A stretch of 38,765 nucleotides of DNA from a virus. Its lineage: Duplodnaviria > Heunggongvirae > Uroviricota > Caudoviricetes. Below are positions 10 through 30,346 of this stretch, piece by piece; position 1 is the first letter of the stretch; each line of letters opens with the position of its first letter. A program made the position numbers and the translations under genes. The notes beneath the pieces were generated by a model. That model saw only the letters and a program-made list of their open reading frames with translations, did not search any database and was not told the origin of the DNA. The DNA lies in the IMG/VR virus record IMGVR_UViG_2654587569_000003; one strand, 5' to 3'.

Positions 10-30
10 AATTACCTCTCGCTTTTCTGC

Positions 31-11808: not shown

Positions 11809-12834
11809 TTACGCCAGTTGAACGGACACGAACTCATCAGGATCAGCCAGCAGCATCAGCGGTGCTGACTGAATCATGGTGAACTCACGCGCCGGATCGC
11901 CGGAGGTCACCCAGTTTTTCGGATAACGGGCAGACGCATTAATACCCTCACGCAATGCATCCGCATCCTGAATACAGCCATAGGTGCGCAGACCGCGTGC
12001 ATGAGTGTTACCCAGCACCATCGTGTTGTCCGGCAGGAAGTTCTTTTTGACGCCGTTTTCCACGTACTGTCCGGAATACACGACGATGGCCACATCGCCA
12101 TACATCCCCTTATAAGACACCGCTTTGCCCAGGTCTTTCACCGCTGTCTCCAGCTCGGAATGAGAGCCACGACGGGTATCCAGCTTCTCCCTGACGGCTT
12201 TGAAGGAACGGAACAGCGCCCAGCCTTTCGGATCAAACACGATGATATTCACCACGCCGCTGGCGTTCAGCGCGTAGGCTTCGATATCGTCGGTCGGGTC
12301 ATACGTGGACTTGTCACGCTTGCTCCACTCCGTGCCGCCGGACTGCGTGATGTTATTCGCCGCACTGCGGCCCATATCCACCTCAACCGGATCGAAGGCT
12401 TCACCGGTCATGGTGTATTTGCCCTTAAGCACGGCAGAAACTGCCTGCATCTCTTCGACCTGAGCAATGGCCAGCTCTTCGTCACGCATGTTCTGCATGA
12501 TGATGCGACGGCGGCGGTAAGCCGGGTCCGCCAGATTCTGCGGATCTTCATCCGGCAGGCGACGCAGGGTCATCTGCGGATTCACTTCATGCTTGGGTTT
12601 GACATATCCCGGCGTAAATTCAGAGGTGGAGCCGCCACGGGAACGGATAACCTCACCGGAAACAATCGGCGAAACGTACAGCGCCATGTTTACCAGTCCC
12701 GGAATTTGTGAGAGATAGACTTTCTCCGTAGTGAAGGGATAGCTCTCACGGAAAAAGAGACGCAGAAACAGCGGATCAAACTTAAATTTCTGCTCATTTG
12801 CCGCCAGCAGCTGGGCGGTTGTGTACATCGACAT
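11809..12834 (-). CDS. E: Major capsid protein E
   Basis: MSMYTTAQLLAANEQKFKFDPLFLRLFFRESYPF matches recalled lambda E; start at internal Met 12834. Confidence 0.95.
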   Translation of the reverse strand: MSMYTTAQLLAANEQKFKFDPLFLRLFFRESYPFTTEKVYLSQIPGLVNMALYVSPIVSGEVIRSRGGSTSEFTPGYVKPKHEVNPQMTLRRLPDEDPQNLADPAYRRRRIIMQNMRDEELAIAQVEEMQAVSAVLKGKYTMTGEAFDPVEVDMGRSAANNITQSGGTEWSKRDKSTYDPTDDIEAYALNASGVVNIIVFDPKGWALFRSFKAVREKLDTRRGSHSELETAVKDLGKAVSYKGMYGDVAIVVYSGQYVENGVKKNFLPDNTMVLGNTHARGLRTYGCIQDADALREGINASARYPKNWVTSGDPAREFTMIQSAPLMLLADPDEFVSVQLA

Positions 12835-12889
12835 AAAAAAATCCCGTAAAAAAAGCCGCACAGGCGGCCTTTAGTGATGAAGGGTAAGG

Positions 12890-13222
12890 TTAAACGATGC
12901 TGATTGCCGTTCCGGCAAACGCGGTCCGTTTTTTCGTCTCATCGCTGGCAGCCTCCGGCCAGAGCACATCCTCATAACGGAACGTGCCGGACTTGTAGAA
13001 CGTCAGCGTGGTGCTGGTCTGGTCAGCAGCAACCGCCAGAATGCCAACGGCAGCACCGTCGGTGGTGCCATCCCACGCAACCAGCTTACGGGTGGAGGTG
13101 TCCAGCATCAGCGGGGTCATTGCAGGCGCTTTCGCACTCAATCCGCCGGGCGCGGTTGCGGTATGAGCCGGGTCACTGTTGCCCAGCGGCTGGTAATGGG
13201 TAAAGGTTTCTTTGCTCGTCAT
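12890..13222 (-). CDS. D: Head decoration protein D
   Basis: [42 protein letters not shown] matches recalled lambda D. Confidence 0.95.
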
Positions 13223-13231
13223 AAACATCCC

Positions 13232-13837
13232 TTACACTGGTGTGTTCAGCAAATCGTTAACGGCATCAGATGCCGGGTTACCTGCAGCCAGCGGTGCCGG
13301 TGCCCCCTGCATCAGACGATCCAGCGCAGTGTCACTGCGCGCCTGTGCACTCTGTGGTGCTGCGGCCAGAATGCGGCGGGCCGTTTCCACGGTCATTCCG
13401 GGGGTTTCTGCCAGCACGCGTGCCTGTTCTTCGCGTCCGTGAGCCTCCTCACAGTTGAGGATCCCCATAATGCGGCTGTTTTCTGCCGCAACCGCTGCGG
13501 TGATCTGCGCGTTCACGTCCGGCTGCGCCGCGCTGGCGTTTTCGCCCTCCGTCGCTGACACCACGTCAGTAACATCAGCCTGCGAAGCAGTGGCTGAAAC
13601 AGTTGTTGATTGAGTCTCTTTGGTCATTCGCCCTCCTGAGAGACGGGGTTTACGTGCATCCAGTGCATCACGCATGACGGTGATCGCATCGGTGCTGTTA
13701 ACAAGTTCATCAGCCAGTCCGGCATCAATGGCCTCCTGACCGCTGTACACTGCAGCCTCTGTATCCAGCACAGCCTGCACGGACAGGCCGGTATATGCCG
13801 ACACCTTCTGCGCAAACATCTGGCGGGTTGCATCCAT
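13232..13837 (-). CDS. Nu3: Possible nested scaffold protein Nu3 (in-frame internal start within C)
   Basis: In-frame ATG (MDATRQMFAQKV) at 13837, about 200 codons from C stop; lambda encodes Nu3 in-frame inside C; boundaries recalled not verified. Confidence 0.4.
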   Translation of the reverse strand: MDATRQMFAQKVSAYTGLSVQAVLDTEAAVYSGQEAIDAGLADELVNSTDAITVMRDALDARKPRLSGGRMTKETQSTTVSATASQADVTDVVSATEGENASAAQPDVNAQITAAVAAENSRIMGILNCEEAHGREEQARVLAETPGMTVETARRILAAAPQSAQARSDTALDRLMQGAPAPLAAGNPASDAVNDLLNTPV

Positions 13838-14531
13838 CCGGGACTGCAGTGTCTCCCGGACGTCATCCGGAAGATGGCTGTAGGGATTGCCATCCACCTT
13901 ATGGCTGCCGCTGTAAATCAGCGTGATTTCCACGCCCTGTTTCTCCAGCGCAGCACCGTAATTACTGTGAGCCATCATGACGCCGATGGAGCCTGTCCGG
14001 GCGGTCTGCGTGACCAGACGCCGGGAGGCGGCACTGGCAAGCAGCTGACCTGCACTGCAGTTCATGTCGTTGGCCAGCGCCCATACCGGTTTTATGTCAC
14101 GCACACGGGCGATGATGTCAGCGCAGTCAAATGCCCCCGCCACCATCCCGCCGGGCGTGTCCATATCGAGCAGAATGCCGTCCACCATCGGATCGCTGGC
14201 AGCCTGTTGCAGACGGGCGATAATGCCGTTGTAACCGGTCATCCCCGAATACGGCTGCAGCGCCCGCGTCCGGCTGACCAGCGTGCCGGACACCGGCAGC
14301 ACGGCGATGCCGTTCATGACCTGATAACTGCGGGCCTGTCGTGGTCCGTCATCATCACCGGATAACGCCAGCGTCGCGGGTGCCTCTCCGGCAGCCAGGC
14401 TGTCACCGGACACCGCATCTGTCAGGCGGCTGATCCCAAGCTGGCCTGCAAGCGCACAAAAGAAAACCCGCGCATAGGCGGGTTCAAGCATCAGCGGCTC
14501 ATTAAAGGCCATGCTGGCAATATGCGGGAGA

Positions 14532-14551
<20 letters not shown>
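13232..14551 (-). CDS. C: Capsid assembly protease / minor capsid protein C
   Basis: Matches recalled lambda C from TAELRNLPHIASMAFNEPLMLEPAYARVFF; aligned start is GTG at 14551, overlapping B 3' end. Confidence 0.88.
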
Positions 14552-18232
<3,681 letters not shown>

Positions 18233-18258
<26 letters not shown>

Positions 18259-18778
18259 TCAGCAACCCCGGTATCAGTTCATCCAGCGCGGCTGCTTTGT
18301 TCATGGCTTTGATGATATCCCGTTTCAGAAAATCAACATGTCGGTTTTCCAGTTCCGGAAAACGCCGCTGCACCGACAGGAGGATCCCGTCGAGAATACT
18401 GGCAATTTCACCTGCGATCCGCGACAGCACGAAAGTACAGAATGCGGTTTCCACCACTTCAGCGGAGTCTCTGGCATTTTTCAGCTCCTGTGCGTCGGCC
18501 TGCGCACGCGTAAGTCGATGGCGTTCGTACTCAATAGTCCCTGGCTGGAGATCTGTCTCGCTAGCCTGCCGCAGTTCTTCAACTTCCCGGCGCAGCTTTT
18601 CGTTCTCAATTTCAGCATCCCTTTCGGCATACCATTTTATGACGGCGGCAGAGTCATAAAGCACCTCATTACCCTTGCCACCGCCTCGCAGAACGGGCAT
18701 TCCCTGTTCCTGCCAGTTCTGAATGGTACGGATACTCGCACCGAAAATGTCAGCCAGCTGCTTTTTGTTGACTTCCAT
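18233..18778 (-). CDS. Nu1: Terminase small subunit Nu1
   Basis: 181 aa, MEVNKKQLADIFGASIRTIQNWQEQGMPVLRGGGKGNEVLYDSAAV matches recalled lambda Nu1. Confidence 0.95.
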
Positions 18779-19010
18779 TGTTCATTCCACGGACAAAAAC
18801 AGAGAAAGGAAACGACAGAGGCCAAAAAGCTCGCTTTCAGCACCTGTCGTTTCCTTTCTTTTCAGAGGGTATTTTAAATAAAAACATTAAGTTATGACGA
18901 AGAAGAACGGAAACGCCTTAAACCGGAAAATTTTCATAAATAGCGAAAACCCGCGAGGTCGCCGCCCCGTAGCCTGCCGGATCGCCGGAAAGGACCCAAT
19001 AAAATGATAA
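18779..19010. other. cos region; cosN 12-nt cohesive-end sequence at 18956..18967 (rc GGGCGGCGACCT), cosB towards Nu1, cosQ side at higher coordinates
   Basis: Plus strand CGAAAACCCGCGAGGTCGCCGCCCCGTAGCCTGCCGGATCGCCGG reproduces recalled lambda cos junction. Confidence 0.85.
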
Positions 19011-19205
19011 TAATTATCATTTATATAAATGCCATCACACATCCCACGTACACCATAAAACCACGACAAATAATCAATTTTGTCCAAGTCATGCATTAAT
19101 TGATCTGTGTCAACTTAACGTAAAGACATCTTAAGACAATACAAATCAGCAGCACTGAACACGGAAAAACACAATGTCATCAAAAAATAAAGCTTCCCAA
19201 ACCAG

Positions 19206-19346
19206 ATGATTAATCAAATCCATATTGCCCTTGAACGTAAGGGATCGGGTAATTTTTCGGCATGGGTTATTGAAGCCTGCAGGAGAAGGCTGGCAACAGA
19301 TGCAAAGCACCTGCGCCCGGCCAGCATGAAAAATAACGAGAAATGA
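19206..19346 (+). CDS. Small hypothetical protein (46 aa), possibly ribbon-helix-helix-like
   Basis: ATG 19206 to TGA 19346, MINQIHIALERKGSGNFSAWVIEACRRRL; short upstream ORF ends in ATGA overlap; no strong SD. Confidence 0.3.
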   Translation: MINQIHIALERKGSGNFSAWVIEACRRRLATDAKHLRPASMKNNEK

Positions 19347-19478
19347 ACGTTCGGTTACAGGAACCGGTAGCTACTGTCTTCTAACAATATTTCATCTTCA
19401 TATCCGGCGAAACAAGACTTTACCCTGCAGGGATGTACTGAATAGCAACAGAGTGATAATTAACTTCTGATAAAATAA

Positions 19479-19805
19479 TCAGGGTGCTGAAGGACTAAAG
19501 ATAAATGTTTTCTTCACGCCTTTACGCGGCTTGTCCTTCTCAAATCGCCATTTTGCCATCGCCTTTACAACCTGCTCATCAAACAGATGGTGCGGCTCTG
19601 AACGGATAAACTCAATTCGGGTGACAGTACCATCAGCACCAATATCAAACTTCACATCAACCCGTCCCTTTATATAATTTGCCGCGGCATAGGCCGGATA
19701 TTGTGGTAATGCCTTAACCAACTGTCGAGGCATATCTGTTTTATGTTGCGTACAGCCCATAACCAAAGAAGACAACAAAATAATTAACGGAAGATTTCTT
19801 TTCAT
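19479..19805 (-). CDS. Lipoprotein with TonB C-terminal-like domain (moron next to cos)
   Basis: MKRNLPLIILLSSLVMGC signal/lipobox-like N-terminus; then YPAYAAANYIKGRVDVKFDIGADGTVTRIEFIRSEPHHLFDEQVVKAMAKWRFE resembles TonB C-terminal signature; GGGA SD before ATG 19805. Confidence 0.65.
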   Translation of the reverse strand: MKRNLPLIILLSSLVMGCTQHKTDMPRQLVKALPQYPAYAAANYIKGRVDVKFDIGADGTVTRIEFIRSEPHHLFDEQVVKAMAKWRFEKDKPRKGVKKTFIFSPSAP

Positions 19806-19825
19806 TTTTATTCCCGGCATAGATA

Positions 19826-19842
19826 AGAATAAGTCTTATTCT
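19826..19842. promoter_or_regulatory. 17-bp perfect palindrome AGAATAAG-T-CTTATTCT upstream of the TonB-C-like gene; candidate operator
   Basis: Read directly; overlaps TAGAAT -10-like hexamer with TTGATG 19 nt upstream on minus strand. Confidence 0.4.
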
Positions 19843-20480
19843 AACAATGCAGCCCTGTCGGTCATCAATCCTCTGCTTAATGGCAATGACAATTATCCGA
19901 CTTAAATCACAAATCAGACACATGACATAACAGAGCTTGCGAGGTAACACATCGTCCGGTTTCTTCCACCATCGCACCGGACCAGCGACCATGAGGGGAC
20001 AACGCCGCGCTCCGTTAACACGGTAAACCCCGGTGTGTATCGTTTTTGATTATCCCCGCACACTCGCGCAGAGGAGTCTCCCTCTCGGGCTGTGGTCTCT
20101 GTTGATGCGGGAATACGGCGACGATACAGTGCATAGTTATGTCAGGCTAAAATGCCTTTATCAAATCTGGGTAACGCAATCTGCCATTGTTGGCTCCGGT
20201 TGTGGTGATGATGTCAAGCAAGCCCATCTTGACTATCTCAACTAGTCGATTCATGACATATGTCACATTTATACCAACCAGATCATTGCGTTGAGTTTAC
20301 AACTCAATAATTCTTGGTTGGACGTCAAGTTTTGACGGTATTCGGGTGGCAGTTGATAGCAATCTTGGAACCGTCCACCTAATAGCTGCTTGTGTGGCGT
20401 TTAAATTGTGGAGTGCTCGCAACAGAACTTTTCTTTCTTGTTTGCGAGCGATGTTTAGCAACTTTTAAGAGAGTTAAGTC

Positions 20481-20711
20481 ATGGAGTTTTTGAAAGAGCA
20501 TCATTTGCCTTCAATAATTTTTGGAATTTTTTCCGCCATTTTTTGGATTATTTCATGTTTTGCATCTTCCAAAGAACACCCACCAAAAACGGAACAAGGC
20601 AGTTTCTCATCACTGGGTTGTTTTAAAGCCATTGAAATACAAAGTAAATGGAATAAACGGGCTGCTTTTTGCGCAGCGTTAGCTGTTCTTGCTCAAGTAT
20701 TTAGCTTTTAG
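20481..20711 (+). CDS. Small two-helix membrane protein (76 aa), opposite strand to late operon
   Basis: Two hydrophobic segments; followed by intrinsic terminator; inverted repeat 20415..20449 upstream. Confidence 0.5.
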   Translation: MEFLKEHHLPSIIFGIFSAIFWIISCFASSKEHPPKTEQGSFSSLGCFKAIEIQSKWNKRAAFCAALAVLAQVFSF

Positions 20712-20728
20712 TTTCAAAAGTGTAAATC

Positions 20729-20765
20729 AGAACCACTCGTATAGCGGGTGGTTCTCTGTTTTATT
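20729..20765 (+). terminator. Intrinsic terminator after the small membrane protein gene
   Basis: 8-bp stem AGAACCAC/GTGGTTCT followed by CTGTTTTATT. Confidence 0.6.
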
Positions 20766-20827
20766 CGTGTTGCGACTAAAACTAACTAAAATCACGCATA
20801 TGAAAGATAATGGGAAAATTATCGCTA

Positions 20828-21265
20828 TCATCGAAGGCATTGCGTCCTAATGTACTCCTGCAAGTAGTTAACCTGCGCGGTTATCCTGTCGATTCCACTT
20901 CGGAGACGGTAATAATTGAGTTCAGCATCTGCTGTAAGTCCTGGGGTTTCTCCATTGCCCATGCCGCTGGCTCCGGTCGTTGACTTTGCACAGGTGGCGG
21001 CGACTTGCAGGCGCTTACGCCCAGCAGAAACATCAGCACGGAGACTTTCGATAGTCGCATTAGCATCAGCAAGCTCCTTTGTGTATCTGGCGTCAAGTTC
21101 TGCTACATCACGTTGCCGCTTCTGCATATCAGCGATGATGGATGTGGCTTTATCGCGCTGCTCTTTGTAGGCGATGGCGTTATCACGGTAATGATTAACA
21201 GCCCATGAAAGGCAGACGATGAGGCAGATGACCAGAACGTAGATAATCGCGGTTACTCTGCTCAT
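20828..21265 (-). CDS. Rz: i-spanin Rz
   Basis: [34 protein letters not shown] matches recalled lambda Rz; ATGA overlap with R stop at 21262..21265. Confidence 0.9.
20881..21066 (-). CDS. Rz1: o-spanin Rz1 embedded in Rz in +1 frame
   Basis: Internal start [20 protein letters not shown] lipobox then proline-rich [16 protein letters not shown]; start choice by analogy. Confidence 0.75.
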
Positions 21266-21759
21266 TGTTGCCCCCACAAACAGACTTCACGCTCAATCTC
21301 ACGGCGAGTCATCAGCCCTTTCCATTGCTTACCGCCAGCGTATGTCCAGCGCCGTAGCTGATCACATGCGCCTTTGATATCGCCCTGGTTTATTTTGCGA
21401 AGAAGCGTCGATGTTCTGAAATTGCCAGCGCCCACGTTGTAAACGAACGAGTAAAGAGCGCCGCGCGTTGTTTCCGGTATATCGACGTTGATGTACGGGT
21501 TTATTTGTCTGGCGACCGTGGCAAGGTCTTTATTCAGGAGGGCTTTGCATTCTGCTTCGGTATACGTTTTACCGGGCATGATGTCTTTTCCGGTGTGTCC
21601 GTGACATACAGTCCATACGCCAACGATATCTTCGTATGGTATGTAGCTGACACCTTCCAGGCCATCGTCACCACTCGGACCAGTGATGAGCACAGACGCT
21701 ATGGCAACAGCCCCACCACCAATAGCAGCAGCAACGGCTTTTCGTAATGATGGAGGCAT
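21262..21759 (-). CDS. R: SAR endolysin R (T4-lysozyme-like fold, N-terminal signal-arrest-release helix), phage-21 type
   Basis: 165 aa, [52 protein letters not shown] matches recalled R21. Confidence 0.9.
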
Positions 21760-21965
21760 TATTCACCTCTCGCAGCCTTGCGCTTATCTTCTTTAATCTT
21801 GAAATAAAGGTTTGTCAGATACGTCAGCAGGCCAAACAGCAGACTCCCCAGCACACCTATTGCCACCCACTGGGACGGAGAGACTTTGTCCAGCAGCTGC
21901 AGTAACCAGTATCCCGTCCCCACCGCTGACGTGGTGTATGACACACCTGTTGTGATTTTTTCCAT
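21759..21965 (-). CDS. S: Pinholin S, phage-21 type
   Basis: 68 aa, ..[43 protein letters not shown] matches recalled S21; single start, no upstream in-frame start. Confidence 0.88.
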
Positions 21966-22007
21966 CTGATGTATGTCTCCGTCACCGCCGACAGAAAATG
22001 AAAGTAA

Positions 22008-22046
22008 AGAAAAACAAAAAAGCCGCCAGTGTCACCCACTGACGGC
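22008..22046 (-). terminator. Strong intrinsic terminator about 45 nt upstream of S (tR'-like position)
   Basis: Minus strand GCCGTCAGTG-GGTGA-CACTGGCGGC then TTTTTTTGTTTTTC. Confidence 0.7.
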
Positions 22047-22221
22047 CAACGCCGGGAGCCGTGATTATGGCATTCAGGCTCTGCTAAAAATGCCAGATAA
22101 CATTCCGGCCAACCCCTGATTCAGGTTATAAATGACACAATATCTTGACAACATCCGTCACTGTCTGTCAGAAAATGTACTGCCAAGTATAAGTATCATG
22201 TGAAGTACATCTACCCGTTTT

Positions 22222-22258
22222 AGCCAGCGTCCTTCAGAGTGGGCGCTGGCTTTTTTTA
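22222..22258 (+). terminator. Plus-strand intrinsic terminator abutting the nanS-p stop codon
   Basis: AGCCAGCG-N14-CGCTGGCT followed by TTTTTTT; no U-tract in minus orientation. Confidence 0.6.
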
Positions 22259-24109
22259 TTATGCTGCCGGTGCATTTATCTCCAGCACCAGACTTTCTAT
22301 CTCAACGCCATACGCTGCATTTTTTGTAACATCCGTCAGCGTCAGCGCATTCAGTCCCAGTGTCAGACTGTCTTTTATAACCTGGAATGCCGGGCCAGCC
22401 ACTCCATTCAGTTTCGGAGTAACCGTGGCACTGCCGGCGGTGAACACCAGCTCCAGCGTCTGCCAGTCGTTACCGTAATCGCCGAACTCCCCCAGCTTCG
22501 TGTTTCCGGCTTTCCTGTGATGCATCAGATTCACTCTGCCGTCAGTGGTCTGAGTGAAGTAAGACATCAGGAACGGATTACCAGTACCCGTCATCGCCAC
22601 ATCATCAGGAACGGGAGCGTCCGTATACAGATAAATCCCCAGCCCGAACTGATTGTTGGTCAGTGCGCCTGAGAGGCGGAACTTACAGGTCAGTCTGCCG
22701 CCCTGTGTCAGCAGGGTAATTGCGTCATCCACCGGATGCATCAGGGACCAGGTTTTATTGCTCTGCTTGGTGATCTTAAATACACCATCTGACAACTGAA
22801 TTCCGCCATTCTTAATGCTCCAGCCCTGCGCAGCAGCATCTCCGGCTGTCGGCAACAGGGAGATTGTGCGTACGGATGCATCTTCAGACGGCCCCGATGG
22901 CGTGTCGCCGCCGGGCGAGGGTTTGATTTCCGGTGCCTTACCACTAATGAAGGCTAAGGTGCGACCGGCTACGTTCAGAATAGCAGTTGCCATACGATCG
23001 GGAATAATGCCACGACGCGCCCATGAGCTGAAATGCGTCGGGCGATTTGATGATACCCAGTTTTTGTTCGTTCGGGATGCCGAACCGTAATAACCAGACC
23101 CGGCAATATCAGGATCTTCTGACGGGTTGTTTGTCGGTGTATTAACTCCGCTACCATCGGTCATAAAGGGAACAAAATAAATCTGCTGGGATTCTTTACC
23201 TTTATATGCACCATATACCACTTCATATTGCGTACCGTGTTCTTGTTTCCACGCGTATGTCGTGTCGCCACAAATCCAGGGGACTGATGCCGGACTTCCA
23301 CCGTGACACTGCGCCGCCAGCCCGGCAAAGTCAGCACGGAACTGCTGTACCATTGCAAGAAATGCTGCTGGCTGCTGGGCGTAACTGGCATTCGTCATAT
23401 CGAATTCCCCCTGCATCCAGCATATCGCCAGCAAAACGTTTTTCGGGTTTTTCTGCAATGCTGCCTTCGTGCGGAAAAGCAGATCCTGATATAACGGCTT
23501 ACCCACTCCCCAGCGAGCCGAATCCTGACTGGCCCCCGTGGACTCGCTGAATGTCCCCTCCGTGCCCTGGGTGAATGCCGAACCACCACGACAGCATGGT
23601 ACCAGCAGGATCCCCGCATTATTAGGGATATACGGAAGCAGTTTTTTGGCAATATGTAAGCCCTGTCCGACACAGCCGTACTGCCCTTTGCTCAGGTCAG
23701 CCCGGGGATGGTTAATCGTACTCATATCCTGAACATCATGCAGACAATGGTCAGCAGGAATGATGTCGTTAAATACGCATACTTCACCACCGGGAGTCAC
23801 TGTGTTACGACGGGCCAGTTGCTTAATGCGCGGATGGGGCGCATCGTATGAATCCGGAAGCGGAAGCCCTTCACCGTAAGCCATGGCATTGGATTGCCCG
23901 GCCAGTACGATGACGTAGTACCACTCTGGCTCAGTTGCACCACTGACGACCACATCACCTTCTGCTGCAATCGCCTGCATCAGGGTATAAGGGGTTATGG
24001 CCACCGGACTACCAAACGGCTGCCAGCCCTCTTTCAGTTTATGTGTCAGCTTTTCCGCAAGATCTGACGGCGACGCCGCCCTGACAACATCATAGTGTTT
24101 AAATGCCAT
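22259..24109 (-). CDS. NanS-p-like sialate O-acetylesterase (N-terminal DUF1737-like region plus SGNH/SASA esterase)
   Basis: MAFKHYDVVRAASPSDLAEKLTHKLKEGWQPFGSP..VIVLAGQSNAMAYGEG; position between stx slot and lysis genes as in Stx prophages; start at second Met with GGTGGA SD. Confidence 0.8.
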   Translation of the reverse strand: MAFKHYDVVRAASPSDLAEKLTHKLKEGWQPFGSPVAITPYTLMQAIAAEGDVVVSGATEPEWYYVIVLAGQSNAMAYGEGLPLPDSYDAPHPRIKQLARRNTVTPGGEVCVFNDIIPADHCLHDVQDMSTINHPRADLSKGQYGCVGQGLHIAKKLLPYIPNNAGILLVPCCRGGSAFTQGTEGTFSESTGASQDSARWGVGKPLYQDLLFRTKAALQKNPKNVLLAICWMQGEFDMTNASYAQQPAAFLAMVQQFRADFAGLAAQCHGGSPASVPWICGDTTYAWKQEHGTQYEVVYGAYKGKESQQIYFVPFMTDGSGVNTPTNNPSEDPDIAGSGYYGSASRTNKNWVSSNRPTHFSSWARRGIIPDRMATAILNVAGRTLAFISGKAPEIKPSPGGDTPSGPSEDASVRTISLLPTAGDAAAQGWSIKNGGIQLSDGVFKITKQSNKTWSLMHPVDDAITLLTQGGRLTCKFRLSGALTNNQFGLGIYLYTDAPVPDDVAMTGTGNPFLMSYFTQTTDGRVNLMHHRKAGNTKLGEFGDYGNDWQTLELVFTAGSATVTPKLNGVAGPAFQVIKDSLTLGLNALTLTDVTKNAAYGVEIESLVLEINAPAA

Positions 24110-24369
24110 GGTTCTTTCCACCATCTGAAAAATAATTCTTTAAAATACCTGACATGTAATACAGAAAAAACACAAAACCATACCTTAAATAAAAACCTCA
24201 TCATCAAGCAGATATGCATGGATAAACTACAAGACGAGATATAAACCACCCTGCATTTAAATAAACAATAAACAACATCAGAAAAATAATTCTGCTCTAT
24301 GGTTTACAATCAAAAATATCATTTATACTTTTCAGAACATCACCAGCAAGGCATAAACAAGGAAACTAA

Positions 24370-24705
24370 ATGAAGTGGATTGTGATTGATACAGTTATCC
24401 AGCCATCATGCGGAATATCTTTTTCAGTCATATGGAGTAAAATAAAATTAATAATCTGGTATCAATCGGATGCTTTCTTACCTCCTGAAAGTATATTTAC
24501 ACTGACTCACACAGGTATCATGCTCAATAACAAAGTGCTACCTGTAACCATTTACAACGTAGTACCATTCAATAAAACATTCTGGAATTTAATCAAAAAC
24601 AGCCAGGAATGCCCTACAAATACAGATAACGTATTGAATGAATGCTTTAATAACCGTTGCACTCTGCAAATATGTCCTTATGGACTAAAACAACAAAGTC
24701 CATAA
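24370..24705 (+). CDS. Hypothetical Cys-containing protein (111 aa) in AT-rich cargo segment
   Basis: AAGGA SD 9 nt upstream; TTTACA-17-TACTTT promoter-like hexamers at 24303..24331; hairpin downstream; no recognisable family. Confidence 0.45.
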
Positions 24706-24740
24706 GGAGTTTACTCACATCTGACAAAATCAATATAAAC

Positions 24741-24760
24741 AGCCCCTCCGGAGAGGGGCT
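24741..24760. terminator. Perfect hairpin AGCCCCTC-CGGA-GAGGGGCT between convergent cargo ORFs
   Basis: 8-bp stem read directly; flanking U-tracts weak in both orientations. Confidence 0.4.
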
Positions 24761-25137
24761 GGAGAGTGGCGCTATGTGCCATTGCATGGTGCCGGGTGCC
24801 TCCCGGTGAATTCAGTACCAGCACCTGAATCCGCGATTATCCCATATACCTACTCGCTGATTGCCCCTCCGCACAGGTGGATTCACCATGCCAGTTTCTT
24901 TTAACAAACTCCCCGCAAACCAGACAACAGTCAACCGCCTGAATTGTGAAGTATTTAAAAATTTCTCCGGCTAACAGTCTGGCGTTTTCTTTTTCAGCAA
25001 CGGGAAAGCAACAACCACCACACCCGCCACCAGTACACAGTCAGCCAGCACTGACATTATCCGGCTGCTGCAATGCCATTCACAAAAACAGTAAGCAATC
25101 ACTTTTTACCGTAACAGGTGATAATCCAGATATGTAT

Positions 25138-25464
25138 CTACCCCAGATGAGTAATCCGAAGTTCATCCATACCACAGGTCCTGGCTATTCTGTTGTACTC
25201 CTGAACAAGAGCAAATAATTCTGAATTAGCAACCATGAACTCATCGCAAACCCTCTGTATAGCATCACTATTCAGAAGAATAACGTCTCTTCCCGAAAGA
25301 CGATCAGGAGTACAGAACAAAACTGTCAAACGGCTGAAGGCCTTTGCTCGTGCTGCATTGACTATATCAATACGCTGCCTAAGGATGAAACACCCCGACG
25401 CCTCATCAATATTCACTCTACCCACACCATATGAATGATAAATATTTAATACTGAAAAAACCAT
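25138..25464 (-). CDS. Hypothetical protein (about 108 aa from internal Met) in cargo segment
   Basis: ORF track entry; no convincing SD; AT-rich; no recognisable motif. Confidence 0.3.
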   Translation of the reverse strand: MVFSVLNIYHSYGVGRVNIDEASGCFILRQRIDIVNAARAKAFSRLTVLFCTPDRLSGRDVILLNSDAIQRVCDEFMVANSELFALVQEYNRIARTCGMDELRITHLG

Positions 25465-25601
25465 TAGACCGTATAACAAACACTCAATCAATACTTAACA
25501 GAACTTTTATTTTTGACAAACATATAATATTTTCAACAATATACTGAGCCAGGTATATTCCAGTATAAGGCTCTGCCGGAAGAAATCTGGAAGAATGAAT
25601 A

Positions 25602-25678
25602 TGGCGCGTTGTACTGGATTCGAACCAGTGACCGATTGCTTAGAAGGCAATTGCTCTGTCCGGCTGAGCTAACAACGC
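25602..25678 (-). tRNA. tRNA-Arg (anticodon UCU)
   Basis: Canonical cloverleaf by hand: acceptor GCGTTGT/ACAACGC, anticodon loop CTTCTAA, T-loop TTCGAAT, CCA encoded. Confidence 0.85.
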
Positions 25679-25691
25679 ATAATGCAGATAA

Positions 25692-25768
25692 TGGATTGCC
25701 ATCGGGGACCCGGGCCCCACACAGCCAGTTTCGAAAGCTGACGCTCTCTGCCGATGAGCTAATGGCGG
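25692..25768 (-). tRNA. Degenerate tRNA-like sequence (possible tRNA-Arg UCG relic)
   Basis: Good D-arm and anticodon arm (loop TTTCGAA) but acceptor has 2 terminal mismatches and T-loop is CCCGGGT. Confidence 0.35.
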
Positions 25769-25775
25769 TATGTGA

Positions 25776-25851
25776 TGGTGGCCCTTGCTGGATTTGAACC
25801 AGCGACCTGGCGATTATGAGTCGCTCGCTCTCACCACTGAGCTAAAGGGCC
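25776..25851 (-). tRNA. tRNA with CAU anticodon, Ile2 (ileX-like) type
   Basis: Acceptor GGCCCTT/AAGGGCC, anticodon loop CTCATAA, T-loop TTCAAAT, CCA encoded; resembles recalled ileX. Confidence 0.85.
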
Positions 25852-25900
25852 GGTAGCAGAATAATAATGGTGCGTAATTAATTCTGCAATCCCATCCGTT

Positions 25901-26950
25901 TCAAACGATTAAATCCTGAACTTCCCTGACTGTCTGTTCAAAACGTCCTGTCTCCAGCTCAACACCAATCGCACAACGCCCCAGTGCCATCGCCGCTTTT
26001 ACCGTTGAACCTGAACCCATAAAAAAATCTGCAACCAGGTCTCCCGGACGACTGCTCGCGTTGATTATCTGCTGCAGCATTTCTGCCGGTTTTTCGCACG
26101 GATGTTTCCCTAGATAGTACTGCACCGGTTTATGCGTCCAGACATCGGTGTACGGAACCTGCGCCGTCACACCGAAATACCGCCGCAAATTTTTATATTC
26201 ACTCAGCAGTTCCGTATACTGCCGGTTCAGCTCACTGTATGTGCTGACCAGCTGGTGGTGTGGCTTTTCCAGTTCCCCGCGCTGATGTTTTTCTGCCGCA
26301 ACACGCGCAAACAACGCCTGCAATTTGTTGTAATTACCCTCGTTCGGTAACTGCCACTGACTGGTACCAAACCAGTGCGAAGCCATGTTTTTCTTTCCGG
26401 TGGCTTCCGCTATCTGTTTTGACGTTATTCCCAGTGATTTACGCGCATCACGAAAGTAAGAAATCAGCGGGGCCATGACGTGCTGTTTTAGCTCGCGCCC
26501 CTGTGCCACATAGCCATCATCTTTCGGGCGATACGGTCCCTGATAATGTTCTGCAAACAGAATGCGCTCTGTTGCCGGAAAATACGCCCGCAGACTTTCC
26601 TTATTGCACCCGTTCCAGCGTCCGGACGGCTTCGCCCAGATAATGTGGTTCAGCACATTAAAGCGCTCACGCATCATGATTTCGGTGTCAGATGCCAGGC
26701 GATGACCACAGAACAGGTAAAGACTTCCGGCAGGCTTCAGTACCCGCCAGAACTGCGCCAGACACTGGTCCAGCCATTTCAGGTAATCATCGTCGCCCTC
26801 CCACTGGTTATCCCAGCCCTCGGGCTTCACTTTAAAGTATGGCGGGTCTGTGACTATCAGATCGACAGAGTTTTCCGGTAAGGTCTGGATAAATTCCAGG
26901 CAATCAGCGTTGATTAACTCACAACTGGATATTTTTACAGTATTAATCAT
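25901..26950 (-). CDS. Orphan DNA methyltransferase, beta-class N6A/N4C (motif IV DPPY N-terminal, motif I FxGxG C-terminal)
   Basis: 349 aa; LIVTDPPYF and DFFMGSGST motifs in circularly permuted order. Confidence 0.8.
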   Translation of the reverse strand: MINTVKISSCELINADCLEFIQTLPENSVDLIVTDPPYFKVKPEGWDNQWEGDDDYLKWLDQCLAQFWRVLKPAGSLYLFCGHRLASDTEIMMRERFNVLNHIIWAKPSGRWNGCNKESLRAYFPATERILFAEHYQGPYRPKDDGYVAQGRELKQHVMAPLISYFRDARKSLGITSKQIAEATGKKNMASHWFGTSQWQLPNEGNYNKLQALFARVAAEKHQRGELEKPHHQLVSTYSELNRQYTELLSEYKNLRRYFGVTAQVPYTDVWTHKPVQYYLGKHPCEKPAEMLQQIINASSRPGDLVADFFMGSGSTVKAAMALGRCAIGVELETGRFEQTVREVQDLIV

Positions 26951-27100
26951 AGATCAATAAGCACTTCTCTGATAGGCTCATACCGCTTTTGCGCAAAGCA
27001 GATGGGCCTGAGGTTTGCTTGTGACCCCAACGCATGAGCAGATGGCTGGCAGGTGCCGCTAACACCCACCAGCCGCCCATTACCACAAATTAAAAAGCCT

Positions 27101-27298
27101 TCACTGCGGAAGGCGTCTGTAACAACCGAACTGATAATCTGCCAGACCCGCCATAACAAGCTGAGTCAGTATTAACTGGCAGCGTTCGCGTGAAAGGTAA
27201 GTATTCTGCGCAATTTCCCCGACGGTCGCCGGTTCGGTGACGCTTAATTCATTAAACACCACTCTGGCGGTTTCGGTCATATCCTGCTGTTTTAGCAT
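27101..27298 (-). CDS. Small putative DNA-binding protein (65 aa from internal Met)
   Basis: MLKQQDMTETARVVFNELSVTEPATVGEIAQNTYLSRERCQLILTQL; HTH-like; lies after terminator and before methylase. Confidence 0.4.
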   Translation of the reverse strand: MLKQQDMTETARVVFNELSVTEPATVGEIAQNTYLSRERCQLILTQLVMAGLADYQFGCYRRLPQ

Positions 27299-27419
27299 GC
27301 TTTTTTCCCTTTTCCGGTTAACGTGACATACCAATACCTCTTGTCGAAAAAGCCAGCAAGCTGAAAGACCAGTATTCACAACTACCAGCGCGTTTAATGT
27401 TCTGTGCCGTTTTTCAGAC

Positions 27420-27446
27420 ATAAAAAAACCCGCATAAAGCGGGTTC
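27420..27446 (-). terminator. Intrinsic terminator about 100 nt downstream of Q-like gene
   Basis: Minus strand ACCCGC-TTTAT-GCGGGT followed by TTTTTTTA. Confidence 0.7.
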
Positions 27447-27529
27447 TTTCAGGTGTCCATGTCTGCTATTCGCCTCGCGGTATAGCTTTGCGAAGCGTAG
27501 CTGGATTGAAACAGTTTATGCGTAAAAAA

Positions 27530-28084
27530 TCAAGACATTTTTTGAGCAAACGATTCTCGCATAGGGATGTATAGCGCATATTCAGCAACAGCCAACCAAT
27601 TAGCAATTCGCTTTTCGCATGTACTAAAACACCATTCCGGGTGCACCTCATTCAACAATTCAGCCATTTTGCGTTTACTCATCCCCCGCCCTTCGTACCT
27701 TTGCCGCAGGATATCAATCAATCCAGGATAACGTGCAAGCGCTTTACTTATCACCCCATCAATGCGTAACGCCTCTGCATCAGTACAGTGAGACAACCAG
27801 CTCTTCTGTCTGCCAGCGATCATCTCTCGCAAGAATGCTTCCAGCTCTGGTTTATCAATCCCTGACTCCCTGATTCTACGCAGGGCTTCATTGATTGCGG
27901 TTTTTGTCAGTTTTTTGGATGCCAGCAACTGATTGAACATATTTCCTGGTTTGCCACCACCTATATACGACCAACGCCCCCACATCCGTAATTTCCCCTG
28001 GATCCAGACGGCTTCCAGCGTTTTTAGACGTAAATGCTCGCCGCTTTTGCCTGTAATTTCCGGGTATATCATATTTACGATCAC
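27530..28084 (-). CDS. Putative late-gene antiterminator Q-like protein (positional call)
   Basis: 184 aa; start overlaps rusA stop by 4 nt; followed by strong terminator; sequence family not recognised by me. Confidence 0.45.
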   Translation of the reverse strand: MIVNMIYPEITGKSGEHLRLKTLEAVWIQGKLRMWGRWSYIGGGKPGNMFNQLLASKKLTKTAINEALRRIRESGIDKPELEAFLREMIAGRQKSWLSHCTDAEALRIDGVISKALARYPGLIDILRQRYEGRGMSKRKMAELLNEVHPEWCFSTCEKRIANWLAVAEYALYIPMRESFAQKMS

Positions 28085-28446
28085 TCACTCTCAATTTTGT
28101 AAATCTTCACGCCCAGCCGTCCCCCAGGAACGCGCTGACCGCGCACAATATTGATTTCATCAAACTGCTCGTCGTCTATGAGAAGTCCGGCATGCGTCAG
28201 CGCATCCAGTGGTGCTTTCAGGATATTGTCCAGGTCACGACGACGTTTATCCGGTGGCTCTGCAATAATCTTTATCGCCAGCCTTCCGGACAGGTTTAAT
28301 TTCAGCCGCTGCTGGCGAACAATAAGCGCCACATCACGGCGATAACGCTCACCGGCTTTTGATACAAAATATGTGCTGCCACGACGTCGCCAGTAAGTGT
28401 TCACCGTTGGCGGGTAAGGCAAAACAAATTCTATGCGTTCAGTCAT
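28081..28446 (-). CDS. rusA: Holliday junction resolvase RusA
   Basis: 121 aa; LPYPPTVNTYWRRRG...DKRRRDLDNILKAPLDALT matches RusA family motifs. Confidence 0.85.
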   Translation of the reverse strand: MTERIEFVLPYPPTVNTYWRRRGSTYFVSKAGERYRRDVALIVRQQRLKLNLSGRLAIKIIAEPPDKRRRDLDNILKAPLDALTHAGLLIDDEQFDEINIVRGQRVPGGRLGVKIYKIESE

Positions 28447-29491
28447 TCATGCTTTCCACTTCAGGACACCCGAATTTCTCGCGTGCATTAAAAAACGAAT
28501 CAGCAACAACAGCTGGCTGCTCAAAATCTTTTACCCCGGCGTGTAGTTCGCTATGGCATTTACGGCACAGCGGAATAACAAACAAATCATCAGCCTTTGT
28601 TCCCATCCCTCCCAGTCCATGACCAATGATGTGATGCGGATCATCTGCCTGATTACCACACGTCATGCATTTCTGCGTTTTTACCCAACGCGTGTATACA
28701 GGCATCTCTTCCCGTCGTGGTTTCTGGCGCTGGAGATACTGAGCCGGTGACTCCGGATCAACGGCAATGCTTACCACCGTCTTTTCCTGTGGCGGGTTTT
28801 GCTGGTGGGCGTGAGGCAGTAGCGCAATATTTTTTGTGCGCTGCTTCAGCATGCTGGTGGCGGTCTGCTCTCCCGGCACGATGTCGCTCTCGCGGTATAC
28901 TGAGCGAATTTTTTCCGCGCGTAATCCCAGTGAACGACGTAACACCGTCTCCGGTAGTGCGTCCGCTACGTTATTTATGGTTGCCCACCAGGATAATTCA
29001 GCCAGCGATAATTCCCGCTCCTGCGTGCCATTCATTGCGTGGCGGATGACATCAATCATCCATGCTGACAGGTTTTGGTGAGCAAGCTGCCCGAGTGATT
29101 CGGAAGTCTGGTTACGCAGCTGGTTGTCGCAGTGCCAGCACAACACCATCGCGCCGGTACCGTAACGATGTATGACGGTTTCACTGTGATGGTAGTCACC
29201 ATGAGGCCACTGGCAGGATTTAATGTGGCGTAACAGCCAGTCAGACAATGCACCAGCACCACCAGCAGCACGAATCACCCGCTCATCGCTGAAAAATGGC
29301 AGTAATGATTTATCCTCCGCCAGCGGCTGGCGAACAGCAGGAACGACTCCGGACGGCAGACCGCGCATGCTTTTCGGTTCCGGCTCCACCAGAACTCGAG
29401 GGTTATGAAATACCTGCATGGATTCACGGCCCGGTTTTAGCACCACCAGCCCAAGTTCCGGTACCGGAACAGGTCGAAGTAATACCCGCAC
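28439..29491 (-). CDS. DUF968 / YdfU-like protein with C-terminal Cys/His HNH-like motif
   Basis: GTG start at 29491 with GGAGG SD overlapping upstream stop; CMTCG..DPHHIIGHGLGG..CRKCH motif; about 350 aa. Confidence 0.7.
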   Translation of the reverse strand: MRVLLRPVPVPELGLVVLKPGRESMQVFHNPRVLVEPEPKSMRGLPSGVVPAVRQPLAEDKSLLPFFSDERVIRAAGGAGALSDWLLRHIKSCQWPHGDYHHSETVIHRYGTGAMVLCWHCDNQLRNQTSESLGQLAHQNLSAWMIDVIRHAMNGTQERELSLAELSWWATINNVADALPETVLRRSLGLRAEKIRSVYRESDIVPGEQTATSMLKQRTKNIALLPHAHQQNPPQEKTVVSIAVDPESPAQYLQRQKPRREEMPVYTRWVKTQKCMTCGNQADDPHHIIGHGLGGMGTKADDLFVIPLCRKCHSELHAGVKDFEQPAVVADSFFNAREKFGCPEVESMND

Positions 29492-29492
29492 G

Positions 29493-29765
29493 TTACCTCC
29501 AGATGCGTTGCTGGAATGTGCGGGACGGACGCGGTGGGCGTTCGGAATAAGGGAGCCTGACATAGATTATCCAGTGACGATAATCGAGGCTGAGGGCTTT
29601 CTTAATCTCGTATCCGCGTCTGCGGTAGTTATGAATTAGCCATTCGGCCTGTTCTTCAGTACATGGTGGGTGTTGGTACCAGTCGGTTTTAAATGCGTGT
29701 GAACGCCGCCCATGCCGGATGGCAAGGTCGGTATCAGAATTGTGAAATTTGGTTTTGTGCGCCAT
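29493..29765 (-). CDS. Small hypothetical protein (90 aa), Rem-like by position
   Basis: ORF translationally coupled to DUF968 gene; lies between hok and ydfU-like gene as rem does in Qin prophage. Confidence 0.5.
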   Translation of the reverse strand: MAHKTKFHNSDTDLAIRHGRRSHAFKTDWYQHPPCTEEQAEWLIHNYRRRGYEIKKALSLDYRHWIIYVRLPYSERPPRPSRTFQQRIWR

Positions 29766-29932
29766 CTGTTTTCTCTACTGGCGCAGCAGGTGTCAGGTGT
29801 TCAGGCTGACGTGCGAATTGTAAACCAGAATGCCAGGAAAAAACAAAACCCGCCGAAGCGGGTTAAGTGCGGGTGCGTTGAGGATGCCTGACTCATCAGA
29901 GGTGGCGAGGGATTTCCCCCTCGCCTGGTCTC

Positions 29933-30088
29933 TTACTCCTCAGGTTCGTAAGCTGTGAAGACAGCGACCTCCGTCTGGCCGGTTCGGATTCGTACCTCGC
30001 AGAGGTCTTTCCTCGTTACCAGTGCCGTCACTATGACGGTTAAACAGATGACGATCAGGGCGATTAACATCGCCTTTTGCTGCTTCAT
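29933..30088 (-). CDS. hok: Hok-family type I toxin (51 aa), near-identical to recalled HokD
   Basis: Hand translation MKQQKAMLIALIVICLTVIVTALVTRKDLCEVRIRTGQTEVAVFTAYEPEE; AAGGAG SD; absent from track (under 60 aa). Confidence 0.9.
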   Translation of the reverse strand: MKQQKAMLIALIVICLTVIVTALVTRKDLCEVRIRTGQTEVAVFTAYEPEE

Positions 30089-30346
30089 AGCCTGCTTCTC
30101 CTTGACCTTTCGGTCCGTAAGAGGCTAATCTCTATGTGTCGCATAGATATGGCCTCAGATTAATGTTAAGCGTCTTGCAGGACGCGTAATGTTAACTGGG
30201 GCTTTTCTCTATCTGCCTTTTGGTGTTCATGCCTGAGACAGATAGCCTCAAGCACCCGCAGTCATTCTACTTAACTAAGATTTCCCCGCAAACCGTTTTT
30301 GTCCGGCACAGTAAATATCCAACTAAACCAATGGCGTTCGCTGTAT

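Follow-up and report, generated by a model that had tools for sequence, protein, structure and literature searches.

The lipoprotein Bor of phages lambda and 21 is known for its role in serum resistance. Other described systems that bear on the present locus act on TonB-dependent transport: TonB's periplasmic domain, when overexpressed, inhibits iron import via TonB-dependent transporters (Howard et al. 2001, as cited in PMC9841981), and Llp and Cor, phage-encoded outer-membrane lipoproteins, exclude phages by acting on the periplasmic face of FhuA (bioRxiv 10.64898/2026.03.26.714494). Here we describe a gene from a virus of the class Caudoviricetes (IMG/VR record IMGVR_UViG_2654587569_000003; its 38,765 nucleotides are the stretch of DNA analysed and are called the window below). 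The gene, on the minus strand at 19479..19805, encodes a predicted lipoprotein precursor with a TonB C-terminal domain as its mature part. We tentatively interpret the product, at a little under even confidence, as a competitive mimic of TonB, that is, as a non-productive ligand of TonB boxes that would block TonB-dependent import.

The gene and its annotation

The open reading frame (ORF) at 19479..19805 is supported by the ORF list, by Pfam and TIGRFAM matches and by RefSeq. It specifies a protein of 108 aa (MKRNLPLIILLSSLVMGCTQHKTDMPRQLVKALPQYPAYAAANYIKGRVDVKFDIGADGTVTRIEFIRSEPHHLFDEQVVKAMAKWRFEKDKPRKGVKKTFIFSPSAP), the N-terminus of which reads MKRNLPLIILLSSLVMGC; the coordinates take in the stop codon. 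A Shine-Dalgarno-like GGGAA (19811..19815, minus strand; AGGAA in phage 21) is found 5 nt ahead of the ATG at 19805, which is also the start chosen in RefSeq. An alternative in-frame ATG at 19820 is preceded by no Shine-Dalgarno-like element and is replaced by GTG in most copies of the clade to which the window belongs (clade 1).

The existence of the gene is not new, a point missed in an earlier interpretation of the window that had been made from its letters alone (the sequence-only reading). An identical protein is present in RefSeq as WP_000828067.1 under the name “TonB family protein”, and the relative in phage 21, CPT_21_73 (OL657228.1), is called “TonB C-terminal domain protein”; neither record mentions a lipoprotein signal or a function. 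In full-text searches of the literature, no work on a lipoprotein of this kind from a phage came to light, the sole incidental mention being that of a “putative TonB-like protein” in one comparative-genomics list. The sequence-only reading had placed the ORF, a palindrome at 19826..19842 and a TAGAAT hexamer correctly, and had recognised by eye a lipoprotein-type signal and the signature of a TonB C-terminal domain. The domain is confirmed by the profile and structure comparisons given below, and the signal agrees with the pattern expected of lipoproteins.

The TonB C-terminal domain

The domain comprises residues 26–104 (19494..19730, minus strand), with the element order alpha1-beta1-beta2-alpha2-beta3, as delimited by phmmer, AlphaFold2 and Foldseek. 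It matches Pfam TonB_C (PF03544) with 57.2 bits against a cut-off of 24.6 (E = 2.4e-15) and TIGR01352 with 57.1 bits against a cut-off of 27.1. The best solved relatives are the C-terminal domains of TonB from E. coli and Salmonella (E ~1e-16); a phmmer search of the Protein Data Bank (PDB) gave E = 1.8e-16 for the E. coli structure 1U07 and aligned residues 26–104 without a gap to residues 153–231 of E. coli TonB. Identity to P153–T235 of the latter is 39%, again ungapped. The E. coli K-12 TonB reference sequence was checked by its length of 239 and by twelve residue positions, which agree with the literature.

Structure prediction, which the sequence-only reading had proposed as a check alongside the profile search, returned the alpha-beta-beta-alpha-beta fold of TonB. 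A first AlphaFold2 model from 5 close sequences was poor (pLDDT 60) and was replaced by one based on an alignment of 28 diverse sequences, with a pLDDT of 87 overall and of 96–98 across the domain. When this model was compared with solved structures by Foldseek, the top 11 matches were all C-terminal domains of TonB or FusB, with root-mean-square deviations (RMSD) of 1.0–1.4 Å for the E. coli structures. TonB as bound to BtuB (2GSK_B) superimposes with an RMSD of 1.0 Å and TonB as bound to FhuA (2GRX_C) with 1.2 Å, the template modelling (TM) score being 0.92 in both cases.

At the level of single residues, P161, Y163 and P164 (the YP motif), F180, G186, F202, W213 and F230 of TonB are identical in the phage protein, and Y215 is replaced by Phe. 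Three further positions, which we take to be close to the TonB box or to the receptor, differ: R158 is K here and T in phage 21, Q160 is L here and Y in phage 21, and R166 is replaced by a Tyr that is invariant across twelve aligned sequences of the E. coli clades, with His or Val in some distant relatives. In TonB, Q160 and its neighbours crosslink to the TonB box of BtuB, Q160L and Q160K are suppressors of TonB-box mutants and R166 touches FhuA. The family also has a signature of its own, with YPxY in place of the YPxR of TonB and SEPxHLFD in place of AKPANMFE.

The beta3 strand, which in TonB pairs with TonB boxes, is present and the chain stops 5 residues past it, so that the edge of beta3 is free of a C-terminal extension. 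In the alignment and the model, the strand that would pair with TonB boxes thus appears intact, while part of the surrounding surface appears to be specific to this family. As judged from its sequence, the protein is not a working TonB: it has only 108 aa, of which no more than the C-terminal 80 align, and is without an inner-membrane anchor and without a proline-rich spacer. It reached 50–74 bits with the NCBIfam TonB equivalog models, the cut-offs of which are 265–448.

The lipoprotein signal

The predicted signal peptide (19752..19805, minus strand) shows a charged n-region (K2/R3), a hydrophobic core and the lipobox MKRNLPLIILLSSLVMG-C18 (V-M-G-C18), followed by Thr19-Gln20. The criteria applied were a positive n-region, a hydrophobic core, the motif [LVI][ASTVIM][GAS]C and a Cys at position 15–35. 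A lipoprotein pattern of the PROSITE PS51257 type is matched by IILLSSLVMGC, and the pattern also fits 10 of the 11 family members tested; the lipobox Cys itself is invariant across 11 aligned members. Between this Cys and the domain there is a tether of about 7–14 residues, the rest of the mature protein being the TonB C-terminal domain.

According to the Lol sorting rule, lipoproteins that lack Asp at position +2 are targeted to the outer membrane. Since the residue at +2 is Thr here, Ser or Ala in relatives and never Asp, sorting to the outer membrane is predicted, and a lipid anchor probably holds the protein at the inner face of that membrane.

Distribution and selection

A stretch of 801 bp around the gene is 100% identical in the enteropathogenic E. 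coli (EPEC) strain E2348/69 and in three other genomes, and at least 80% of this stretch is held by 414 of 5,426 complete E. coli genomes (clade 1). Clade 2, which is of the phage 21 type and has 70% protein identity to the window protein, is represented in 1,221 of the same 5,426 genomes, including that of the E. coli type strain. The prevalence is thus 8% for clade 1 and 22% for clade 2, together up to about 30%. The gene is frequent in prophages of pathogenic E. coli, among them EPEC and Shiga toxin-producing strains (STEC), and also occurs in Stx1a phages and in the PhiR phages from ECOR13. A homologue with 41% identity lies between the lysis and terminase genes of a Klebsiella phage, scans of viral contigs revealed many prophage copies, and a profile search of 1.8 billion representatives retrieved further small proteins in which a lipobox is followed by a TonB_C domain.

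The synonymous divergence (dS) between the window clade and two other lineages is 1.0–1.5, and the ratio of nonsynonymous to synonymous divergence (dN/dS) between lineages is 0.12–0.19; the protein is clearly maintained by purifying selection. Truncated and frameshifted copies are also present in databases.

Two of the loci deserve separate comment. The E2348/69 copy (NC_011601.1, 1289259–1302059) belongs to a rearranged prophage with truncated head genes and with IS200C and ISEc13 by the holin gene. The window itself is an intact-looking mosaic with no exact match among complete genomes, the best showing 96.8% identity over 98% of positions 12000–30000. The other locus is a contig of 418 bp in an assembly of Modestobacter excelsi (NZ_SJEX01000172.1), which encodes the first 67 residues of a phage 21-type protein and is almost certainly E. 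coli contamination; a search of the GTDB species-representative genomes yielded nothing beyond this contig.

Genomic context

The slot between the lysis genes and cos, to which the sequence-only reading had assigned the gene, is indeed the one in which lambda and phage 21 have bor. A cos end of the lambda type, GGGCGGCGACCT (18956..18967), follows the stop codon of the TonB-domain gene at a distance of about 510 nt, with cosQ (GGGTCCT) at 18991..18997; Nu1 and then the large terminase subunit follow beyond cos. Upstream, at a distance of about 1 kb, are Rz (20828..21277) and the embedded Rz1 (20881..21096), which match spanin families of PHROGs with E = 6e-72 and 4e-28, respectively. The window carries a complete set of holin, endolysin, Rz and Rz1. 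In phage 21 the TonB-domain gene adjoins bor, just after it and before cos. This synteny is retained in nine diverse further loci, where the gene always follows holin, endolysin and Rz/Rz1 and, on contigs long enough to show it, precedes the terminase, despite differences in type among the lysis genes and among the terminase genes; in some of these only about 40–80 nt separate it from Rz1.

The TonB-domain protein is itself a member of PHROG 1267 (E = 3e-42), a family labelled “Rz-like spanin”. We reject this identity, as the window has its own Rz with an embedded Rz1 and as the protein lacks a C-terminal hydrophobic membrane segment. An o-spanin would be expected to pair with an i-spanin gene or to be embedded in it, and a unimolecular spanin to combine a lipobox with such a C-terminal segment. 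The label looks like an annotation by neighbourhood, because an unrelated ORF of 49 aa nearby receives the same one, and is apparently wrong.

Comparison with related phages by local blastn delimits an insertion module at 19194..19953, which consists of the TonB-domain gene, its upstream region and a divergent ORF of the DUF3950/YlcI family. JLK-2012 and Lys8385Vzw have the module. It is missing from CP-1639 and 1720a-02, in which the conserved block 19954..20134 directly abuts Rz, and is carried by only 7 of the 139 phage records that have this flanking block. The sequence-only reading had called the gene a moron, and this holds with respect to the presence/absence polymorphism between otherwise collinear phages; a conserved TG-extended -10-like site, part of a predicted promoter, lies upstream. 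No convincing terminator was found downstream of the gene in the window. In the Klebsiella phage, the homologue is accompanied by a promoter-like site, and a hairpin with a T-run was seen by eye past its stop codon.

Since the TonB-domain gene has the orientation of the late operon and stands between Rz and Nu1, antiterminated late transcription must cross it. We infer from this gene order, which the sequence-only reading had not considered, that the gene is expressed in the late phase of lytic growth, regardless of any promoter of its own.

Several neighbouring features were noted. The divergent ORF of the module (19206..19346, plus strand, 46 aa) belongs to the DUF3950 or YlcI-YnfO family and to phrog_949, a group of unknown function, and is not found beside the phage 21 copy. 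The block at 19954–20134 is non-coding and is conserved in 139 phage records and in 1,912 E. coli genomes; it contains the ORF of 49 aa that matches a PHROG labelled as spanin. For the conserved upstream block (19930–20120) there was no Rfam match even at E <= 1 and no unusually stable fold (z = -0.41). Further upstream, an ORF of 76 aa with two hydrophobic stretches (20481–20711, plus strand; phrog_14357, of unknown function; a hypothetical protein in RefSeq) is followed by a hairpin of 12 pairs with a T-run (20729–20755). It is part of an insert of about 700 bp that separates Rz from the conserved block and looks like a second, independent insertion of an accessory gene.

The upstream region

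A promoter of its own is plausible for the gene, and the predicted site is conserved. A consensus scan identified a sigma-70 promoter-like site at 19838..19865 on the minus strand (9 of 12 positions, plus TG), in which ATGACC is separated by 16 nt from TAGAAT (19838..19843), the latter preceded by TG as in an extended -10 element. Synonymous sites are near saturation between the lineages (dS ~1.5), and conserved non-coding islands are informative for that reason. One such island is the stretch ATTGT[T/C]AGAATAAGAC, which holds the TG-extended -10 element together with the left arm of the palindrome mentioned above, and in which clade 1 and phage 21 agree at 15 of 16 positions, the identity in the roughly 40 nt just upstream of it being at random level. 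A third lineage, L085, retains a -10-like TAAAAT. The -10-like element that the sequence-only reading had seen to overlap the palindrome is thus conserved across lineages.

The same cannot be said of the palindrome as a whole, which that reading had regarded as the operator of a repressor. The perfect 8-1-8 palindrome AGAATAAG-N-CTTATTCT (19826..19842) overlaps the -10 element and the likely transcription start, and is clade-specific. Of 75 copies of clade 1 that were examined, 74 have it intact, a figure of little weight given their overall identity of at least 95%. Phage 21, which reads ...AAGACCCGTAGGAATAAAAATG, lacks the right arm of the palindrome, and in L085 this arm is replaced. Perfect palindromes with arms of at least 8 nt are not enriched in the window, where there are 4 distinct examples against 2.6 +/- 2.0 in composition-preserving shuffles, and no second copy of the palindrome within 3 mismatches, sought as the mark of a repressor regulon such as one that includes operators of the prophage itself, was found in the window. 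The palindrome is at best a clade-specific operator.

A resemblance of the palindrome to a Fur box had likewise been suggested. With 13 of 19 positions of the Fur consensus GATAATGATAATCATTATC at 19822..19840, a simple consensus count, the match is of a quality attained at only 10 of 77,494 positions in the window. The best match in phage 21 has 10 of 19, and that in L085 has 12 of 19 at a different place, so this feature is not conserved and Fur control is not supported by the sequence comparison.

A further conserved island, TGTGATTTAAGTCGGA (19896..19911, minus strand), with an overlapping GATAAT just downstream, emerged from the alignment of the three lineages; it reads TGTAATGTGAGTCAGA in phage 21 and TGTGATTCAAGTCGGA in L085. 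It resembles a pair of CRP half-sites, centred about 72 nt upstream of the presumed transcription start, a resemblance that we consider only a lead.

Two other motifs in the vicinity may be mentioned. A perfect 7-1-7 palindrome, TGATAAT-N-ATTATCA, at 19004–19020 (19000–19024 in its wider form) represents the core of the Fur-box consensus, and the best matches to this consensus in the window (14–16 of 19) all fall on it. On the gene's strand, its end lies 6 nt ahead of cosQ; the perfect motif is present in 44 of 163 retrieved loci and its right arm is degenerate in phage 21. Lambda has TGATAATGATTATCA at the same position adjacent to cosQ. Within the TonB-domain ORF, a strong antisense promoter-like site, TTCACA-16-TATAAT (11 of 12), occurs at 19651–19678 on the plus strand, and the homologous position of phage 21 has a similar TTAACC-16-TATAAT with TG; this site may be a by-product of the conserved codons for ANYIKG.

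Function and alternative explanations

Of the possible explanations for a TonB domain in this setting, we favour one in which the protein uncouples TonB-dependent transport. This would be the most economical reading and it is consistent with published dominant-negative TonB fragments. Lacking an inner-membrane anchor, a proline-rich spacer and any means of contact with ExbB/ExbD, the protein could bind but not energise. Its lipid-tethered TonB tip would sit beside the transporters at the inner face of the outer membrane and would occupy their TonB boxes, and possibly also those of incoming group B colicins. Host TonB would then be unable to engage the transporters, which would block the entry of TonB-dependent phages (of the T1/phi80 type), colicins and microcins, at the cost of a damped uptake of siderophores and B12. 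Expression would occur with the late operon, and probably also from the gene's own TG-extended -10 promoter in lysogens. In place of the “TonB-box decoy” of the sequence-only reading, a TonB mimic that binds TonB boxes would be the better term. That the outer-membrane-tethered mimic constitutes a broad-spectrum, receptor-independent blocker of all TonB-dependent import in temperate enterobacterial phages, phage 21 among them, is a possibility that we advance with reserve.

Several considerations weigh against a TonB mimic. The changes at R158, Q160 and R166 affect three TonB positions near the TonB box or receptor, so that something other than a standard TonB box may be the partner. Carriers of the gene, among them lambda-like siphoviruses and Stx phages, have unrelated tails and receptors, which gives no connection to self-exclusion. 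As TonB is far outnumbered by the transporters, a blockade would need an abundant protein, and if it were constitutive it would starve the lysogen of iron. None of the PADLOC defence models matches the protein. Finally, the gene stands directly after the spanin genes in every locus examined, which could indicate a late or lysis role rather than lysogenic conversion. In a related search, the best matches to the C-terminal 320 aa of tail protein J of the window were phages without receptor information in their records.

The position behind the spanin genes is central to the alternative that survives best, although we consider it rather unlikely: the TonB_C fold may be a generic periplasmic module for some other partner, such as peptidoglycan or an envelope protein, with a late role in envelope remodelling, in the timing of lysis or in the release of progeny. 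All nine of the further loci place the gene after holin, endolysin and Rz/Rz1 on the late strand, at times within about 40–80 nt of Rz1, the family signature differs from that of TonB (YPxY, SEPxHLFD), and PHROGs groups the family with lysis proteins. However, accessory genes are well known to insert at the junction of lysis and terminase genes, where phage 21 has bor as well, and the PHROG label looks like guilt by association. Moreover, the lysis set of the window is already complete, the protein has no C-terminal membrane segment, and the closest structures are those of receptor-bound TonB and not of TolA or of peptidoglycan binders.

A different contact with the same phenotype would result if the lipoprotein captured host TonB by pairing of the C-terminal domains, holding it at the outer membrane. 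The aromatic residues F180, F202, W213 and F230 are retained, as is an aromatic side chain at position 215 (Y215F), and we take these five positions to be implicated in dimer contacts of the TonB C-terminal domain. Crystals of shorter TonB fragments contain intertwined dimers, as in 1IHR, one of the PDB matches, and one may speculate that TonB, being far less abundant than the transporters, is the easier target. As the model fits the monomeric, receptor-bound form best, we regard such a capture as improbable.

The gene could also be a lysogenic-conversion factor that does not block but tunes the acquisition of iron or B12, or signalling through transporters such as those of the FecA type, in response to iron or carbon and under the control of the palindrome, Fur or CRP. 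The rarity of Fur-consensus matches as good as the one at the promoter (13 of 19, at 10 of 77,494 window positions), the conservation of the CRP-like island in three lineages and the frequency of the gene in prophages of pathogenic E. coli would be in line with this idea. Yet neither the Fur-like match nor the palindrome is conserved in phage 21 or L085, and it is not obvious how transport could be stimulated by a domain beyond the reach of energy input, so we give this explanation little credence.

That the gene is a decaying, functionless fragment of a captured host tonB, as the truncated and frameshifted database copies might suggest, is hardly credible: the selection analysis shows constraint (dN/dS 0.12–0.19 at dS up to 1.5), a lipoprotein signal has been acquired and kept, the length is constant at 108 aa in the compared lineages, and 22% and 8% of complete E. 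coli genomes carry the two clades.

If a TonB mimic is indeed what the gene encodes, a previously unrecognised exclusion mechanism would be present in as many as about 30% of the E. coli genomes sequenced, one that would protect simultaneously against TonB-dependent phages, group B colicins and siderophore-microcins. A single prophage gene would then alter the sensitivity of the lysogen to phages, bacteriocins and “Trojan horse” siderophore-antibiotics as well as its iron and B12 economy. It would provide a natural proof of principle for the interface between TonB and the TonB box as a drug target, and a ready-made inhibitor, acting at high local concentration, with which to dissect TonB cycling. 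In databases, the “Rz-like spanin” label of PHROG 1267 calls for correction.

Other features of the prophage

RNA elements elsewhere in the window were scored at the Rfam gathering level. They comprise the small RNAs (sRNAs) STnc100 (24731–24920, minus strand) and DicF (38296–38347, plus strand), a sok antitoxin RNA of a hok/sok-type module (30086–30257, minus strand) and two tRNA genes (25605–25678 and 25779–25851, both minus strand).

Comparison with known systems

Should the proposed function be correct, it would be a variant of two known things, namely dominant-negative inhibition by TonB domains and the exclusion factors that phages deploy as lipoproteins. The C-terminal domain of E. coli TonB (about residues 150–239; 1U07, 2GSK chain B, 2GRX chain C) belongs to the same Pfam family and has the same fold, at 1.0–1.2 Å. 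Five of six conserved aromatic and glycine positions are identical, the exception being Y215, which is Phe, and the YP motif and beta3 are kept. The phage protein differs from TonB in having a lipoprotein signal in place of the membrane anchor, the spacer and the link to ExbB/ExbD, in lacking the last 4–7 residues, and in the replacement of R158, Q160 and R166.

The periplasmic TonB fragments engineered by Howard, Herrmann, Stratilo and Braun (2001, J Bacteriol 183:5885) follow the same logic, as summarised in PMC9841981: a TonB domain is freed from its energy source. Those fragments were artificial, soluble and overexpressed, whereas the phage protein is natural and probably lipid-tethered to the outer membrane.

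Llp of phage T5 and Cor of phages phi80, N15 and HK022 are likewise small phage lipoproteins, which reside in the inner leaflet of the outer membrane and act on the periplasmic face of FhuA. There is no relationship in sequence or fold, as searches of Pfam, PHROGs and the PDB, the latter by both sequence and fold, yielded only TonB domains. Llp acts allosterically through binding to the plug surface of a single receptor, whereas a TonB mimic would act on the TonB box that the transporters share and could therefore be broad-spectrum. Bor (lambda, phage 21; Iss-like) is similar in being the product of an accessory gene for an outer-membrane lipoprotein in the slot between Rz and cos, but it is encoded on the opposite strand and is unrelated in sequence.

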